Shown in pieces: positions 527-8,225 of a stretch of 13,399 bases of DNA (the first letter of the stretch is position 1; the number at the start of each line of letters is the position of its first letter). Both the position numbers and the translations under genes were made by a program. The notes under the pieces are model-generated. The model made no database searches and was not told the origin of the DNA. It worked only from the letters and a program-made list of their open reading frames with translations. The stretch is from a virus, in UHGV virus genome UHGV-0349718. One strand, given 5' to 3'.

Positions 527-910
527 TCAATTACACCTGCCAACTTCAGGATCCATCTCAAGACGCACTCCCAATGCCATCAACATCCCCTCGACTATTC
601 CTTCGGCCTTCTGAAGTCTTTTGCCTATATATCCATCAGAACAATAATGCTTACGGGCCAGTGCCATAAACGTCATTCCTCTTACGTAATAATCCACCAG
701 CAAATCATGCAAATCACTGTCGTTCTTTTTCAGGCGAGCCATACACCCACAAATAACCATTGCATCATCATCACTACATTGCGGACGTGATTTAACCTTT
801 GGTGGAATAAGCCCCTTGAATCCGGCGGCAATAGATGGCCAGGTAACATCCTCGTGGTTATTTGCCACCCATGCCCCCCAACGCTCAAGAACCATCTGAA
901 TATCACGCAT
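527..910 (-). CDS. Late-gene antitermination protein Q (phage 82 / QuuD-like family)
   Basis: 127-aa ORF starting [14 protein letters not shown]... with Cys-rich core ([16 protein letters not shown]) typical of Q antiterminators; ATG at 910 overlaps the stop of the upstream gene by 1 nt. Confidence 0.8.
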
Positions 911-2555: not shown

Positions 2556-3430
2556 GCAGCCACACCTCTGATACGAGAACGGTAGCTGGGCCAGTTGAAC
2601 GACAACCAGTTGCGCCCCCCGTCTGTGATCCTGTCGGCAATGCGGGGGCTGATGAACGCCCACAACTCTTCCGGTGAAAGGTTGCTGATCAGGATGGTGG
2701 GCAGGATACTTTCGTACCGGGCATTGATAATTTCCTGCAAAATAGCCATTTCAGCCGCGCTGCCAAACTGAACACCAACTTCGTCGATGATCAGCAAATC
2801 CATTGACGCATAATGCTCAATAACTTCATCCGCTGTTTTTTCGCTGTCATTCCGCCAGCAGTTTTTCACAGCACGGGTAAGACGCATCACGTCGGTGATC
2901 TCCACACTGGCCAGATAGTTACGGATGATGTGTTTTGCCATTGATACCGCCAGATGATTTTTCCCGGTTCCGCAACTACCGGTCATAACAAGACTGGTAC
3001 CGTTCTCCAGCATATCTGGCCAGTTCTCCGCATAGCGGCGACAGGCTGCAAGATTTCTGGCCGCGTCAGGATTAACCTCCAGATAATTATCAAACTCGCA
3101 GTCCCGAAAACGCAGGGCAATTCCGGCGTTATCAGTCAGCTCTTCCGCCTTGAGGGACGACAACTCCATGGTCAAATCGTTGGCCTCAGCGATCAAGCAG
3201 TCAGGGCAGCATGAAATTTTTTCTCTGTCCTCGCCATTACGATCGCTCCACACCAGTATATGCGTACTGTATTTACCGTGTTTTTCGCAATATCCGCGAC
3301 CTTCGCGCATCAGGCAGGAACGATAAGGCCATGGCTTTTCGCCCTTCTGAGCAAATGCAATCTCTGCCCGTAACTCATCCATTTGCGCCTGTAGTCTTTT
3401 TTGTTGTTCACACAGGTTAAACGTCATCAT
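2552..3430 (-). CDS. DnaC/IstB-like AAA+ ATPase (putative helicase loader) with Cys-rich N-terminal region
   Basis: Walker A GSCGTGKNHLA and Walker B LLIIDEVG; N-terminal CxxxxC...CCPDC cluster. ATG at 3430 with GAGGTG 7 nt upstream; the ORF-track start at 3439 is a GTG. Confidence 0.8.
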   Translation of the reverse strand: MMTFNLCEQQKRLQAQMDELRAEIAFAQKGEKPWPYRSCLMREGRGYCEKHGKYSTHILVWSDRNGEDREKISCCPDCLIAEANDLTMELSSLKAEELTDNAGIALRFRDCEFDNYLEVNPDAARNLAACRRYAENWPDMLENGTSLVMTGSCGTGKNHLAVSMAKHIIRNYLASVEITDVMRLTRAVKNCWRNDSEKTADEVIEHYASMDLLIIDEVGVQFGSAAEMAILQEIINARYESILPTILISNLSPEELWAFISPRIADRITDGGRNWLSFNWPSYRSRIRGVAA

Positions 3431-3440
3431 CGCTGCCACC

Positions 3441-4265
3441 TCAGAATGTCAGTTTGTCACTGGATTTACCGAATTTGTCAGACATGGCTCCCAGGCCAGC
3501 CAGGACATCGACCTGTCGCTGTCGCCCACCTCCGGGAGCGGCTGGCTGTTGCCAGAAGTCTTCGAAGTGACGATCGGGTCCAAAGAACGTCGCTGCCTGC
3601 TTCACGAACTGTGTGCCGGTATTTCCTGTAGCACGTACCCAAGCGGCATAACGTCTCACACCATCAAGCATGGTCTCCGGTTTTATTCCCTCCCTGAGAC
3701 GGGCTTTCCAGGCTTTGAAGGCTGCCGACTTGGAATTACCACCAGCACGTTTGGGATATTCCTGCCAGGCCTGTTCAAATTCTGGTGAATATTCCTGTCG
3801 GGCAGAGCGCGCTGGTGCAGACGCGTCAGCGGATGCGCCAATTGTTGGTTCATTGACTGGTTCTTTGACTGGTTCAAAAGAGTGACTGGTTCTGGGTGAA
3901 TCTCCTGCACTACCCCCTAGTGCAACTCCTGCACTACCTAGTGAATCTGCTGCACTAGGTAGTGAATTATTTGCACTACCCCCTGGTGAATCTTTTACAC
4001 CATCAAGGCGAAGGAGATAAATATTGCTCGAATTCCCTTTTTCACCTTTCCGGGAAACTTTTTTTACCAGCCCGGACTCGCAAAGCGCTGCGATATGATT
4101 CATCACAGAACGTTTACTGATTTCGCACTGATCAGCGATATGCTGGTAACTTGGCCAGCACTCCCCCTGATCGCTGGCATTATCCGCCAGCTTAACCAGA
4201 ACAAGTTTTCGCAATGGATTCCCCACACGAATTTTCATCGCTTTAACCATCAGCTCCATGCTCAT
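3441..4265 (-). CDS. Phage replication initiation protein (O-like; N-terminal winged-HTH replication domain, low-complexity linker, conserved C-terminal domain)
   Basis: N-terminus NPLRKLVLVKLADNASDQGECWPSYQHIADQCEISKRSVMNHIAALCESGLV resembles HTH replication-initiator domains; sits immediately upstream of the loader and helicase; iteron-like repeats lie inside the linker-coding part. GGAGGT 5 nt upstream of the ATG. Confidence 0.7.
   Translation of the reverse strand: MSMELMVKAMKIRVGNPLRKLVLVKLADNASDQGECWPSYQHIADQCEISKRSVMNHIAALCESGLVKKVSRKGEKGNSSNIYLLRLDGVKDSPGGSANNSLPSAADSLGSAGVALGGSAGDSPRTSHSFEPVKEPVNEPTIGASADASAPARSARQEYSPEFEQAWQEYPKRAGGNSKSAAFKAWKARLREGIKPETMLDGVRRYAAWVRATGNTGTQFVKQAATFFGPDRHFEDFWQQPAAPGGGRQRQVDVLAGLGAMSDKFGKSSDKLTF
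3853..3994. repeat. Iteron-like direct and inverted repeats inside the initiator gene (candidate phage origin of replication)
   Basis: TGACTGGTTC three times (3854, 3866, 3883); TGCACTA(C/G) four times (3906, 3930, 3951, 3973); GTGAAT four times; perfect 12-bp inverted repeat CACTACCTAGTG (3932-3943) / CACTAGGTAGTG (3953-3964); moderately AT-rich stretch at 4011-4070. Confidence 0.6.
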
Positions 4266-4486
4266 AGAGCACCTCCCAGGCGTTTAAACATTTTTCCGGA
4301 CTGAAACGCCATCAACGGATAGCTAATGGTGTAGTTACGCCCCAGTAATTCACACACAACTTTCTGGCTTTCGGTACTGACCAGGCAAACCCGCAGAACG
4401 TGACCGTTGCTGGTGGCAAACCACTGCCCCACACGGGGGCAACGGTTGTATCGGTGATACAGAGAATTCACAACGCGACGAATCAT
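4262..4486 (-). CDS. Hypothetical phage protein (74 aa)
   Basis: ORF with GGAGGT 5 nt upstream of the ATG; ATGA overlaps with both neighbours. No recognisable domain. Confidence 0.5.
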   Translation of the reverse strand: MIRRVVNSLYHRYNRCPRVGQWFATSNGHVLRVCLVSTESQKVVCELLGRNYTISYPLMAFQSGKMFKRLGGAL

Positions 4487-4677
4487 GGGCGCACCTCCGC
4501 CGTAGTGATGTATTTAACCGGACTGCCTTTCATTGCGATGGTTTCACACATCTCCGCTGCTTTACGTTCCGCTGTTTTCCTAGATTTATAGCGGCGGTGC
4601 CAGACAGACGTATCCGTGCGAACTGATACATCGTTTCTGTATTCAGTTGTGGAAATAATAATTTCGTAACTAATCAT
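4483..4677 (-). CDS. Hypothetical phage protein (64 aa)
   Basis: ATG at 4677 overlaps the stop of the 220-aa gene (ATGA), with GGAGGT 6 nt upstream; the track ORF begins 5 codons earlier at 4692. Confidence 0.5.
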   Translation of the reverse strand: MISYEIIISTTEYRNDVSVRTDTSVWHRRYKSRKTAERKAAEMCETIAMKGSPVKYITTAEVRP

Positions 4678-5336
4678 GGACGCACCTCCCATTGATTACG
4701 GCGGAAAGCGGTGTGATTCAGGTTAGTTTCTGCCTCATGGAATGCTTCAATACAGCTCTCGTAGTACCGCATTGTGCGGAGACTTAACCCAAGCTGAAGC
4801 ATCATCAAACCATCAAGGGTGATGTAATAACCATGCAGAGAATCACCATAGATGTGATAAGTACCCGGTATGAAATTGCAGGTAAAAAATTCGCGCGAGC
4901 AGTTCAGATACTCGATTTTGTCGACGATGTTCTGGTGCATGCGCTTGAAATGACAGGCAACATGCAGAGAGAAAATAACGGCCTTGCCGTTGACGACTTC
5001 GATTTTGAGAAATGGGGAAGTTGGGACAGTAGCCATGATGGCAGCCTCCTTGAGCAGTGAAAAACTTCCACCACCGGAGGTTCCAAGCTCGCTGGTGGCG
5101 GACTGAACAGGGTTGGAACTACCGGCGCTCAAGGAAACCGGCGAGCCTTTCGGCTCCCCTGCCCAGCCCACCATAATTCTGGCGTGCGCGAGCATGGACG
5201 ATAAAAAAGACGCTGGCGCGTCGTATATCGCCTCGAGCAATTCCGGGGTTCCAATCCCGGCACCCGCTTTATAAGGTGCGGAGACAGTGTAACGTCCCGA
5301 AATTGCAGAATCAATATTTAGGCTTGAAACATTCAT
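4674..5336 (-). CDS. Hypothetical phage protein (220 aa) with a Ser/Gly-rich low-complexity linker
   Basis: Long ORF heading the overlapping chain; weak SD; central stretch SAGSSNPVQSATSELGTSGGGS. No recognisable domain. Confidence 0.5.
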   Translation of the reverse strand: MNVSSLNIDSAISGRYTVSAPYKAGAGIGTPELLEAIYDAPASFLSSMLAHARIMVGWAGEPKGSPVSLSAGSSNPVQSATSELGTSGGGSFSLLKEAAIMATVPTSPFLKIEVVNGKAVIFSLHVACHFKRMHQNIVDKIEYLNCSREFFTCNFIPGTYHIYGDSLHGYYITLDGLMMLQLGLSLRTMRYYESCIEAFHEAETNLNHTAFRRNQWEVRP

Positions 5337-5425
5337 ATGCTTACTGGTATTTTTACTAACGCAAATGTTCTTGGATGTTACTGGCTTACTTCTTTTGTGA
5401 AGTTGCCTTTACTAACGTTGAGCGA

Positions 5426-5450
5426 GCCGGGCCACTGCCCGGCTTTTTTT
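5426..5450 (+). terminator. GC-rich hairpin with plus-strand T-tail (intrinsic terminator oriented against the surrounding operon)
   Basis: GCCGGGC-cact-GCCCGGC (5426-5443) followed by TTTTTTT (5444-5450) on the plus strand; abuts the stop codon of the minus-strand Rha-like gene. Confidence 0.5.
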
Positions 5451-6163
5451 CACCGCTGCCAACCAATAACCTGAAATAACCCCATTTTCGGGTGATACCA
5501 GCGAGTCCCTCGCGGTTCTGCTTCCTCCATAACCCGATAAAAAGCAGCCATAAACGGTTCCACAGCAACAATTGCGCGACGTGATAACAATCCATCCGGT
5601 GTCATAAACTCGTGAGTATCGGTAGGAATTTGATAAGCGTTCACCAGATTGCGGCATTTATCATCTGACAAACCGGTTTTCGCTTTCAGTTGGCGATATC
5701 CGGCATAGCCCTCACGAACGGTGCCCTTTTTAATTTGCTCGACTGTTTCGGCAACATGGCTGACTTTTTCTTCCACCTGAGTGATCCGTTTCTGTTGGCG
5801 AACGGCTTCAAGAGCCATCGCGGCAACCATTTCGATTTCGCTCATTGGCTTACGGATCTGTTCTTCCAGTTCGCGCCAGCGATCTACCAGGCGGGCTGTG
5901 AATTCGGGACAAAGCCGTGCGACGACAATGATGCTGTCGCGTTTGCCTCGTTCACCTTCGAAAAGATAATGCTTACTTTTTTGAGTTAAACCTAACCCAT
6001 TGATATTTTCAGAAATCCCCATTGGGGGAAGCTGAATAATCCTTCGTTCAGCAAGGCGCTCAATGGATTGTTTCACTTTGTCATGGCGGCTGCCCACCAG
6101 CTCTGCGATTTCAACGCTGGTCATGGATGCTTTGCCGTTAAAAATTGCGGTGTTCACTGCCAT
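5450..6163 (-). CDS. Phage regulatory protein, Rha-like (putative)
   Basis: N-terminal ...SMTSVEIAELVGSRHDKVKQSIERL... resembles the Rha family motif. Start uncertain: ATG at 6163 sits directly after AAGGAG; the ORF-track start is 6199. Confidence 0.5.
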   Translation of the reverse strand: MAVNTAIFNGKASMTSVEIAELVGSRHDKVKQSIERLAERRIIQLPPMGISENINGLGLTQKSKHYLFEGERGKRDSIIVVARLCPEFTARLVDRWRELEEQIRKPMSEIEMVAAMALEAVRQQKRITQVEEKVSHVAETVEQIKKGTVREGYAGYRQLKAKTGLSDDKCRNLVNAYQIPTDTHEFMTPDGLLSRRAIVAVEPFMAAFYRVMEEAEPRGTRWYHPKMGLFQVIGWQR

Positions 6164-6276
6164 CTCCTTACGGATAAATTCTTTTAAGATTCCGCACATT
6201 CGTACTTGTTGGTGCCGAACCTTCCTTCAGTTATCTTTTTGATCCCTATAAACAAAAGAACCAAAGGAGGTTCGAC

Positions 6277-6357
6277 ATGTCACAAAAAAAAACGATATTC
6301 CTGTTTTTCCTATTACAGCCTGGCAGGCTGGACCATTGCCCGGTTATGGTGCGCTAG
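6277..6357 (+). CDS. Small ORF (26 aa, MSQKKTIFLFFLLQPGRLDHCPVMVR) with a near-perfect Shine-Dalgarno, antisense to the leftward operon
   Basis: AAAGGAGGT at 6262-6270, 6 nt before the ATG at 6277; hydrophobic core; too short for the ORF track. Confidence 0.35.
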   Translation: MSQKKTIFLFFLLQPGRLDHCPVMVR

Positions 6358-6560
6358 CATTAAAATTCCAGTACCTGACTTCCCCTATGCAACCACTGGA
6401 TTCAGCACAAGAAACTCAGTTCTTCGCGCTTACTCCCGAAATGACTGAGACTTTGATCTCCGATCTGCGCCGACATATTGAGACGCTGAAAAAATCCGGT
6501 ATTCACAGCCCACAAGAAAACAGGCATTAATCGAAAAAACGGTTGCCGCATAATTTCTTG

Positions 6561-6590
6561 AAAAGCGTCGCGCACTGGCGCTTTTCATTT
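6561..6590. terminator. Candidate bidirectional intrinsic terminator (tR1-like downstream of cro, and end of a plus-strand unit)
   Basis: Hairpin GCGTCG-cgcac-TGGCGC (6565-6581) flanked by AAAA upstream and TTTT downstream, giving a U-tail on either strand. Confidence 0.45.
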
Positions 6591-6614: not shown

Positions 6615-6857
6615 TCACTCCTCCCCCGTGTGCGCTAAGCTTGGGTGTGGGAAAAGCTCTGGTAGATCTGGACGAAATTCATACGATTGGATCTTTCCGT
6701 CGACAGCTGCAACCAATAACGGCACAAATTCGGGTGAAATCTTGTTCTTGCAGTTAAGCCAATCACAGACTGTTGATTGAGCCTTTCCGCATCGCTTGGC
6801 TAAGGCTTGTTGGCTCCCAAGAATCTCAATGGCTTTTTCTATAGCTTTATGTTTCAT
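6615..6857 (-). CDS. cro: Cro-like HTH transcriptional regulator (80 aa)
   Basis: HTH motif ...GSQQALAKRCGKAQSTVCDWLN...; divergent from the CI-like repressor; ATG at 6857 with AGGAG 8 nt upstream (track ORF starts further upstream at 6929). Confidence 0.7.
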   Translation of the reverse strand: MKHKAIEKAIEILGSQQALAKRCGKAQSTVCDWLNCKNKISPEFVPLLVAAVDGKIQSYEFRPDLPELFPHPSLAHTGEE

Positions 6858-6976
6858 AATCGCATCTCCTATTGACGACATATTATCAATAGGTAAATCG
6901 ATATTCAACGTTAAACCTAGAAGTTTCATCGGAAAGCCGATAAACTGCCCAACATAGAGAGGAGAGGAAGATCACA
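6858..6976. promoter_or_regulatory. Divergent cI-cro control region (OR-like): operator palindrome and PR-like promoter
   Basis: Palindrome CCTATTGA-N10-TCAATAGG (6868-6893). On the minus strand, -35 TTGAAT (6908-6903), 17-nt spacer, -10 TAATAT (6885-6880), overlapping the palindrome. Strong SD GGAGAGGAAG precedes the cI ATG at 6977. Confidence 0.6.
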
Positions 6977-7669
6977 ATGACATTTTCAGAACGACTTGAT
7001 TTAGCTATGCGCAACGCCAAATTTACGCAAGGCAGGCTGGCCAAAGAAGTAGGTATGGCCCAGTCAAGCGTCAATCAATTACTTAACAAAGCCAACGGTT
7101 CCAGGAAAACAGTTGAAATAGCAAAAGTTTTGGGCGTTAACCCGGAATGGCTCGCATCTGGTGTCGGTCCAATGGAAATCGAGACCTCTGCAGACTCACA
7201 CCAAATACGTAACATTTCAGAAGACAGGATTACTGATTCGTATGTCGTGGATGTTTTAGACATCAGATACAGTTGCGGGCCTGGTAGTTATAACTCTGAT
7301 TTTCCAGACATTGTCAGATCTATAGCGATAGAACCAGGATACGCATCAAGAGTTTTTGGCGGCAGACCAGCATCAGCAATCAAAGCAATAAACGCCCACG
7401 GCGACAGCATGAAAGGCACAATAAACCCTGAGGACTTGGTGTTTGTTGACGTATCAGTTCGCTCATTTAATGGCGATGGTATATACGCTTTTACATACTC
7501 TGGAACATCGCACATCAAAAGGCTTCAAAAAATCAAAGACACCCTAACAGTGATCTCAGACAATCCAGCTTACAAAGATTGGGCTATCGAACAAGATGAC
7601 TTCGAGCAACTTCACATTGACGGAAAAGTAATCGTAAGTTGGCCTATGACGCTACACCGTTTCGCATAA
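6977..7669 (+). CDS. cI: CI-type prophage repressor (N-terminal HTH, C-terminal LexA-like S24 autopeptidase domain)
   Basis: N-terminal HTH (...FTQGRLAKEVGMAQSSVNQLL...); C-terminal Ser in AHGDSMKG and Lys in SHIKRL, the S24 catalytic dyad pattern; divergent to cro. Confidence 0.9.
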   Translation: MTFSERLDLAMRNAKFTQGRLAKEVGMAQSSVNQLLNKANGSRKTVEIAKVLGVNPEWLASGVGPMEIETSADSHQIRNISEDRITDSYVVDVLDIRYSCGPGSYNSDFPDIVRSIAIEPGYASRVFGGRPASAIKAINAHGDSMKGTINPEDLVFVDVSVRSFNGDGIYAFTYSGTSHIKRLQKIKDTLTVISDNPAYKDWAIEQDDFEQLHIDGKVIVSWPMTLHRFA

Positions 7670-7692
7670 GCGATAATTATTTAACATCCCCG

Positions 7693-7717
7693 CCCACTCC
7701 ACGAGTGGGTTTTTTTT
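7693..7717 (+). terminator. Rho-independent terminator after cI
   Basis: CCCACTC-cac-GAGTGGG hairpin (7693-7709) followed by T8 (7710-7717). Confidence 0.75.
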
Positions 7718-7736
7718 GAAAAAATCGACAAACCGA

Positions 7737-7765
7737 TTGACAACACAAATAGGTAAACCTATTAT
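7737..7765 (+). promoter_or_regulatory. Near-consensus sigma70 promoter (PL-like) with operator-like palindrome in the spacer
   Basis: -35 TTGACA (7737-7742), 17-nt spacer, -10 TATTAT (7760-7765); spacer contains AATAGG-taaa-CCTATT (7748-7763), sharing AATAGGTAAA with the cI-cro operator region. Confidence 0.65.
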
Positions 7766-7805: not shown

Positions 7806-8225
7806 ATGAGGAAAATGTCATCGTATATGGGGTTACCAACAAATCAACACGATGCTCTTGAGAATATTCAACTCTTAGTAGGGGCTGGAGCACTACTATA
7901 TAGCAGCAATAACCCTGAGTTAATTGAACTTGCCAGCTCCATCCTGGCTGTAACTCAAAAATATAGCCTCACCGCGTCGCGTTCATGCAAACAAAATTTA
8001 GCCATTAATTCACAGAATCGGATTCGCACCCAACGCGAAGCCTGCGGCTTAACAACCGCCGAACTCGCCAGGCTGCTCGATCTCGATGAAGAAATCATCA
8101 TCCAGTGGGAAAGCGGAGAGTATGAACCAACTATCAGTATGCTTATCCCACTGGCAAATGTTCTTGGTTGCGACCCGATGTGGCTGTTAACCGGTAAACC
8201 AACAGCTGGAGATACTTGCGCATGA
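7806..8225 (+). CDS. HTH-XRE family DNA-binding protein (139 aa; C-terminal HTH, N-terminal region unrecognised)
   Basis: C-terminal ...IRTQREACGLTTAELARLLDLDEEIIIQWESGEYEPTISMLIPLANVLGCDPMWLLTG is a classic XRE-type HTH. First gene after the PL-like promoter; alternative start at ATG 7815. Confidence 0.65.
   Translation: MRKMSSYMGLPTNQHDALENIQLLVGAGALLYSSNNPELIELASSILAVTQKYSLTASRSCKQNLAINSQNRIRTQREACGLTTAELARLLDLDEEIIIQWESGEYEPTISMLIPLANVLGCDPMWLLTGKPTAGDTCA

Follow-up and report, generated by a model that had tools for sequence, protein, structure and literature searches.

Predicted 16-bp CI-type operators at both early promoters of an Escherichia coli lambdoid prophage

The DNA analysed here (the window, 13,399 nucleotides of the virus genome UHGV-0349718) very probably carries ordinary 16-bp CI-type operators at OR and OL, flanking cI in a textbook layout, and not a new operator design. 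From the sequence, the hexamers AATAGG and CCTATT are best read as half-sites of a predicted 16-bp palindromic operator of 6-4-6 form, WATMGS-N4-SCKATW. The half-sites in the window are AATAGG or AATCGG followed by CCTATT or CCGATT, and copies were counted at four places in OR (6858, 6888 and 6927, plus a weak one at 6906) and at two in OL (7723 and 7748). With its 16-bp unit and the cross-lineage consensus AATCGCTTAAGCGATT, the motif does not belong with the 17-bp lambda, the 14-bp 434 or the 18-bp P22 operators. A description of this operator was not found in a literature search.

The immunity region and its surroundings

The window is the early region of a lambda-like (lambdoid) prophage of E. 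coli. Between 6500 and 8300 it is 99.7% identical to a chromosomal prophage of the porcine E. coli strain UMNF18 and of several ETEC strains, and the UMNF18 annotation agrees with the ORF and domain scans of the window on the gene layout (Table 1). The two are near-identical around the immunity region, with a coordinate offset of about 276 bp across the replication genes (window 2663-6500), and the ORF at 3441-4265 is 825 nt long in the window while the matching UMNF18 CDS has 978 nt. This makes the window a mosaic relative of the UMNF18 prophage and not that prophage itself.

As in lambdoid switches, the repressor gene and a small Cro-like HTH gene are divergent with a short regulatory gap between them: the 119 bp of 6858-6976 are exactly the interval from the cro-like start codon (6855-6857, minus strand) to the cI ATG (6977). 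The repressor likewise has, at the level of its sequence, the HTH and S24 domains, the Ser/Lys dyad and the Cys-Gly site of such switches. Self-cleavage is predicted from Cys100-Gly101, GDSM with Ser144, and Lys181. The recognition helix, QSSVNQLL, comprises residues 29-36, and the closest solved DNA-binding domain by sequence is that of the 434 repressor, to which the similarity is weak (E=3.7e-4). Beyond cI, the start codon of the first gene of the PL operon was taken from the UMNF18 annotation; small genes on the same strand follow it, and the operon ends with xis and int.

Table 1. Features of the immunity region. The score columns give bits under a matrix trained on the metagenome contigs L011 and L012, and under a matrix built without the window's lineage.
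Feature	Position	Strand	Description	Bits (L011/L012)	Bits (without lineage)
Q, replication genes, Ash, Rha	left of cro-like gene	-
cro-like gene	6615-6857	-	ORF, 80 aa, YdaS-family HTH; Pfam YdaS_toxin E=6.8e-15; PHROG 35 transcriptional repressor
Operator-like site A0	6858-6873		AATCGCATCTCCTATT; spans about +1 to +16 of the PR transcript, plus the cro Shine-Dalgarno	14.5	14.8
PR-like -10	6880-6885	-	TAATAT (TATTAT in majority variant), reverse complement of window letters
Predicted operator A1	6888-6903		AATAGGTAAATCGATA; fills PR spacer	14.2	13.6
PR-like -35	6903-6908	-	TTGAAT; 17 nt from -10; invariant in 10 variants
Weak operator-like site A2	6906-6921		CAACGTTAAACCTAGA; one good half-site; 5.0 bits
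Putative PRM-like promoter of cI	6918-6946	+	-35 TAGAAG 6918-6923, 17-nt spacer, -10 TAAACT 6941-6946
Predicted operator A3	6927-6942		CATCGGAAAGCCGATA; inside PRM spacer	13.9	11.8
CI/LexA-type repressor gene (cI)	6977-7669	+	230 aa; N-terminal HTH, C-terminal S24 peptidase; Pfam Peptidase_S24 E=2e-17 plus HTH families; PHROG 4 E=5e-54
Intrinsic terminator 3' of cI	7692-7718	+	8-pair stem, then T run
Predicted operator B2 (OL2-like)	7723-7738		AATCGACAAACCGATT; last 2 nt are first 2 nt of -35	14.1	16.6
PL-like promoter	7737-7765	+	TTGACA-17-TATTAT; 11/12 consensus matches
Predicted operator B1 (OL1-like)	7748-7763		AATAGGTAAACCTATT; in PL spacer, overlaps -10 by 4 nt	15.8 (top match in window)	12.4
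PL operon gene 1	7815-8225	+	136 aa; N-terminal domain of about 55 aa, C-terminal HTH_3; Pfam HTH_3 E=8.6e-12; PHROG 4836 'CII-like regulator'

Several other features of the window were observed alongside the immunity region. Inside the ORF at 3441-4265 (minus strand), positions 3896-4007 hold an iteron-like array, TGCACTAC(CCC)CTAGTG, of four or five copies about 21-23 bp apart, some of them inverted (12-bp arms, 3932-3964), with an A+T-rich stretch near 4018-4036. As this ORF precedes DnaC- and DnaB-type genes, the array probably represents the origin of phage replication, situated within the initiator gene as in lambda O. Between Rha and cro, a bssS-family ORF (about 6213-6530, plus strand) occupies the strand opposite to theirs, with a strong terminator (6559-6587) after it. 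It looks like a moron-like insertion in the PR operon, and is also found beside the different immunity region of a relative, L002. Perfect 6-4-6 and longer palindromes occur within 230-500 (at 236, 338, 362-383, 422 and 478), to the left and hence downstream of a Q-like ORF (527-910, minus strand), and may be late-promoter or terminator structures.

Sites and promoters in the window

At OR, predicted operators of one type are set closely over divergent promoters, which is the arrangement of a lambdoid switch. The PR-like promoter has 8/12 consensus matches and falls below the threshold of a generic promoter scan, which listed only the promoter at 7737. A good -10 is kept at its position in both variant types found among close relatives, and its -35 position reads TTGACA in Klebsiella-type lineages. 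The spacer of PR is filled by A1 in the window and by an equivalent site in L011, L012 and a Klebsiella phage, and A1 matches the OL site B1 at 13/16 positions. A2 would be an operator by virtue of its position, which is that of the best palindrome of other lineages (AATCGCCTATGCGATT, 22.3 bits). The promoter proposed for cI is placed by a TAnnnT hexamer that begins at the last two bases of A3 in all lineages inspected (TAGACT, TAAAAT, TAGAAT and TAGGAT elsewhere).

The promoter at 7737 follows cI on the same strand and stands at the head of the operon that leads to xis and int. As this is the position of PL in lambda, the OL-like label given to it in the initial annotation is correct as to position. 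OL begins 54 bp past the cI stop codon, after the terminator, and here the hexamers AATAGG (7748-7753) and CCTATT (7758-7763) face each other across 4 nt, in the spacer and the first 4 nt of the -10, as had been described. In most of the same-immunity relatives B1 reads AATCGG(T/C)AAACCTATT. Predicted operators of the same type thus stand at a second early promoter past cI, on the int arm, again as expected of a lambdoid switch.

Whole-window counts of hexamers and octamers showed no overall enrichment (AATAGG occurs 7 times against 5.3 expected), so the case rests on the clustering of the motif and on the comparison with relatives. Perfect inverted repeats with 8-bp arms and a gap of at most 20 numbered 18 in the window and 5.25 in shuffles, and perfect 6-4-6 palindromes 7 and 3.9, respectively; judged by chance, neither of the palindromes pointed out in the initial annotation is remarkable alone, and the signal lies in the motif that the two regions share. 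The pattern AATNG-N6-CNATT is perfect at only three places in the 13.4 kb (6858, 7723 and 7748). The two regulatory regions held half-sites of the form WATMGS, a pattern picked after the data were seen, at about 9 times the density of the remaining window (7 against 0.75 expected, Poisson P = 1.3e-5). The matrix trained on L011 and L012 gave six window matches of at least 12 bits, compared with 0.39 in shuffles, and the top five were at 7748, 6858, 6888, 7723 and 6927; its training sites were chosen by eye after the window motif was known, which makes this test less than fully blind. Relatives showed a forward half-site with a reverse half-site at +10, making up a 16-bp unit, in 16 cases, and the outward-facing arrangement in 4.

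Two further matches were considered and set aside. The match at 7660-7675 (TTTCGCATAAGCGATA, 13.4 bits), which spans the cI stop codon, was rejected as an OL3 and probably arose by chance: L003, L004 and L008 do not conserve it, the conserved RFA codons of the C-terminus dictate half of it, and the terminator stands between it and PL. The second match (6529-6544, 9.9 bits) follows the bssS-like ORF; since L002, with its different immunity, has it too, it is unrelated to this repressor.

What is mildly unusual in the window is the conserved fourth site over the cro ribosome-binding site, together with the 30-bp phasing of the leftmost sites. An operator-like AATGGCTTTTTCTATA, made up of the cro codons for IEKAI, occupies 6828-6843. 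From it to the 6858 site, and from there to the 6888 site, the spacing is exactly 30 bp, and the same three-site phasing is seen in L012 (1346, 1376 and 1406). Many lineages read AATCGCTTTTTCTAC at the equivalent of 6828-6843, where the motif is inseparable from coding constraint. It seems unlikely, though worth stating, that OR in this repressor family is a phased array of four or five sites instead of the classical three, which, with OL at a distance of only about 860 bp, could point to a higher-order repressor assembly or a short OR-OL loop unlike the lambda octamer.

Conservation and co-variation with the repressor

The sites are conserved under the same repressor. In a set of 10 same-immunity sequences from E. 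coli genomes and metagenomes (91-100% identity), 11/96 columns were variable in the six sites compared with 29/105 in the non-site intergenic DNA (Fisher P = 0.0046, OR and OL pooled); the difference was significant in OR and in the pooled data but not in OL alone (P = 0.57). Only 1/16 columns varied in each of A2 and A3, and also in A0, where the cro ribosome-binding site is a partial confounder. By comparison, the 5 nt that separate the PL -35 from B1 had 7 versions among the 10 variants. At half-site position 4, A and C interchange under an identical DNA-binding domain, which in L008 and L009 is the same over all 66 residues. One sequence, L018 (E. coli WAT), combines a majority-type OR (AACAGGAAAAGCGATA) with a window-type OL (AATAGGTAAACCTATT, CGACAAACC), which indicates recombination between operator variants inside one immunity group.

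More distant relatives were sought as well. A scan of genome contigs with the single CI protein gave an unrelated Pseudomonas locus as its sole match, and a metagenome scan yielded 6 loci, two of them (L011 and L012) informative. The CI proteins of these two are 67% identical to that of the window and share its recognition helix, and sites of the AATCGGAAAACCGATT type occupy matching positions in an OR that has otherwise diverged; one of the two also has such sites at a TTGACA promoter after cI. In the Klebsiella phage ST13-OXA48phi12.5, AATCGC-N4-GCGATT is found at both OR and OL, with one site ending in the -35 and one in the -10, as in the window. Scanning IMG/VR for the recognition helix gave 80 loci, representing 23 lineages whose CI proteins are less than 90% identical to one another.

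De novo Gibbs sampling of the OR regions of these 23 lineages, run blind and without a prior, settled on ATCGC-ATAG-GCGAT. With the matrix that excludes the window's lineage, there were 24.5 matches/kb in OR, 3.9/kb in the 400 bp after cI and 0.03-0.44/kb elsewhere, and in the window's lineage it recovered the sites at 6858, 6888, 6927, 7723 and 7748. Sites of at least 10 bits were located 45-53 nt 5' of the cI start (63 in L099), the position of A3, in 23/23 lineages, and about 115-128 nt 5' of it (144 in L099), the position of A0, in 15/23. An OL pair was detected in 15/23 lineages and was not found within 400 bp of cI in the other 8; in 13 of the 15 the 25-bp start-to-start spacing and the same overlap with the -35 and -10 are kept. 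The composite ...CGATTGAC recurs in the 15 OL-pair lineages, four of which read TTGAT, TTGAA or TTTAC for TTGAC, and thirteen lineages show the composite as ...CGATTGAC / ...CTATTAT.

When the repressor changes, the motif changes with it. In L002 the DNA-binding domain of the repressor is unrelated (34% identity over 64 aa), and OR and OL there have another motif in common, CCAAAGTATCAA. L002 and L005 share the chromosomal context of the window, have unrelated repressors, and carry different repeated motifs that are again shared between OR and OL. CI proteins of the 4A7/BTP1 type (helix QPTIWRL) are accompanied by 16-mers of the AATAGCAAnnCGTATT type. Operator sequence therefore follows the immunity module: it differs between immunity types along with the DNA-binding domain of the repressor, while lineages with the same helix keep the same motif. 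What these observations establish is the sites themselves, where they lie with respect to the promoter hexamers, how far they are conserved and how they change together with the repressor.

The initial annotation had proposed that one repressor controls both divergent early promoters. The shared motif and the PL position of the second promoter speak for this, and the OR-like and OL-like idea is borne out by the presence of the same 16-bp motif at OR and at the 7737 promoter, in the window and in many repressor lineages; binding itself is a prediction, and the long-gap operator unit described along with the proposal did not hold up. That unit was CCTATTGA (6868-6875) and TCAATAGG (6886-6893) with a 10-nt gap, a 26-bp palindrome that does bracket the PR-like -10 (TAATAT, the reverse complement of 6880-6885), and the shared AATAGGTAAA is indeed present at both 6888-6897 and 7748-7757. 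Its perfect 8-bp arms centred on the PR -10, and the recurrence of a CCTATT-N14-AATMGG arrangement in L011 and L012, could suggest that the 26-mer is bound as one unit by a repressor that tolerates outward long-gap half-sites at OR and inward N4 half-sites at OL. We consider this very improbable. An inverted repeat with 8-bp arms somewhere in 119 bp has a chance of about 0.05 and is only weakly unexpected, and the palindrome is perfect in 2/10 same-immunity sequences, those of the window and L021. In the others the right arm is ACAACAGG (the majority form, CCTATTGA...ACAACAGG) or ACAATAGG, and in some the left arm is CCTATTAA; the arms change even where the DNA-binding domain of the repressor is identical (L008, L009), so that arms and 10-nt gap are not conserved under the same repressor. 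The gap between the 6858 and 6888 sites is 19 nt and not 14 in Klebsiella-type lineages, and conserved flanks complete each arm to a 16-bp site, AATCGCATCT on the left and TAAATCGATA on the right. By its sequence, the 26-mer appears to be the right half of the 6858 site plus the left half of the 6888 site, on either side of the PR -10, and the odd spacing that had been proposed is an artefact of reading across two adjacent sites. The 16-bp, 6-4-6 unit lies in length between the operators of 434 and lambda.

The remaining alternatives accept the 16-bp sites and assign them to other proteins. The 7748-7763 site lies in the promoter of the HTH-XRE gene (7815-8225), the HTH_3 domain of this protein is confidently identified, and autoregulation is frequent among such proteins; the site could be its autoregulatory operator, as had also been suggested, with the likeness to OR being incidental. 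There is little to recommend this reading, as a double dissociation separates the site from the gene. In L012 the OL operators are kept next to a downstream protein whose HTH domain is different (27% identity overall, most of the similarity being N-terminal), while in L002 the HTH domain is kept (89% aa identity) with a different repressor and no such sites at OL. Only 2/15 OL-pair lineages have a first downstream ORF with a window-like HTH domain at high identity, most lineages have an unrelated gene right after OL, and across relatives the site and the HTH-XRE DNA-binding domain do not co-occur. The OL sites follow the repressor type and not the HTH-XRE gene, which disfavours autoregulation. 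The first PL gene was itself seen to be a two-domain mosaic (7815-8225 in the window, 2351-2812 in L012 and 2697-3227 in L002): the N-terminal 55 aa or so travel with the immunity module, being similar in L012, L043 and L100, and the HTH domain is exchanged independently.

A different possibility is that the sites are chiefly operators of the YdaS-like Cro, with CI recognising something else or a subset of them. The Cro-like protein of the window is 60-70% identical to those of L012 and the Klebsiella phage, as it is among operator-sharing lineages generally, and it co-varies with the sites as well as CI does; as this holds in every lineage, the sites cannot be assigned to either protein from the sequence alone. 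Sites reserved mainly for Cro would nevertheless be a most unlikely arrangement. In characterised lambdoid switches CI and Cro use the same operators, no other repeated motif that could serve CI was seen in OR or OL, and the IMG/VR loci, which were selected on the CI helix, carry the motif. We favour 16-bp operators that CI, and probably also the Cro-like protein, would use.

Comparison with known switches and implications

At the level of its sequence, the region has every feature of a switch of the lambda, 434, P22 or 933W type, with binding predicted. In a lysogen, repressor dimers on A0 and A1, and perhaps A2, would shut PR, which drives cro on the minus strand, with A1 lying in the spacer, A0 at the transcription start and the cro ribosome-binding site, and A2 on the -35; A2 would also abut the -35 of the cI promoter. 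Dimers on B2 and B1 would shut PL, which drives the operon to xis and int. At high repressor levels A3 would be occupied and the transcription of cI limited (negative autoregulation), and during the SOS response RecA-stimulated self-cleavage of the S24 domain would lift repression. Repressor binding, the assignment of proteins to individual sites, cooperativity and the activation of PRM are all expectations of this model.

The resemblance to lambda is in the layout: divergent cI and cro, an HTH and S24 self-cleaving repressor, close-set and partly symmetric operators over PR and PRM, and a second operator set downstream of cI on the same strand, heading the xis/int operon. In lambda, too, the promoter-proximal OR and OL sites are the most alike, as A1 and B1 are here. 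Unlike lambda, the operators of the window are 16 bp long (6-4-6) and unrelated in sequence. OR has four operator-like sites, of which one covers the cro ribosome-binding site, and OL has just two clear ones. About 860 bp separate OR from OL; a terminator is all that lies between cI and PL, where genes of the rexAB type are absent, and the cI transcript would have a leader of about 24 nt with a Shine-Dalgarno sequence. The first PL gene encodes an HTH protein and not N, and Cro is of the YdaS family.

The 434 operator, ACAA-N6-TTGT, is likewise short and symmetric, its outer bases conserved and its centre variable, but it has 14 bp and the recognition helix of its repressor differs from that of the window. 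In the E. coli lambdoid prophage 933W, as in the window, OL is without a third site, although the repressor and operator sequences differ; 933W CI binds both OR and OL, and its binding was reported to be non-cooperative (PMC3317979). The general OR and OL principle in lambdoid phages is covered by the same source (PMC3317979).

A close comparison is also offered by Klebsiella phages (Mulock, ST13-OXA48phi12.5), whose CI is 51% identical overall and 77% in the DNA-binding domain, with the helix QSSVNKLL and the same PL composite as the window. They differ in having C at half-site position 6, where the window type has G, and in a longer gap between A0 and A1. The 4A7/BTP1/ST104 group also has 16-bp sites (CI 47% identical in 4A7/BTP1), but with a different helix and half-sites. 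Experimental characterisation of the operators of the Klebsiella phages or of the 4A7/BTP1/ST104 group was not found in a literature search.

To summarise, the analysis provides a concrete operator definition and a promoter map for an uncharacterised immunity type, one that is found in porcine and bovine E. coli prophages, including those of ETEC and STEC strains, and, in a form that differs by one base of the half-site, in Klebsiella phages. The understanding of lambdoid switches is unchanged by it; its use is in the annotation of prophages, the prediction of immunity groups and the design of reporters.
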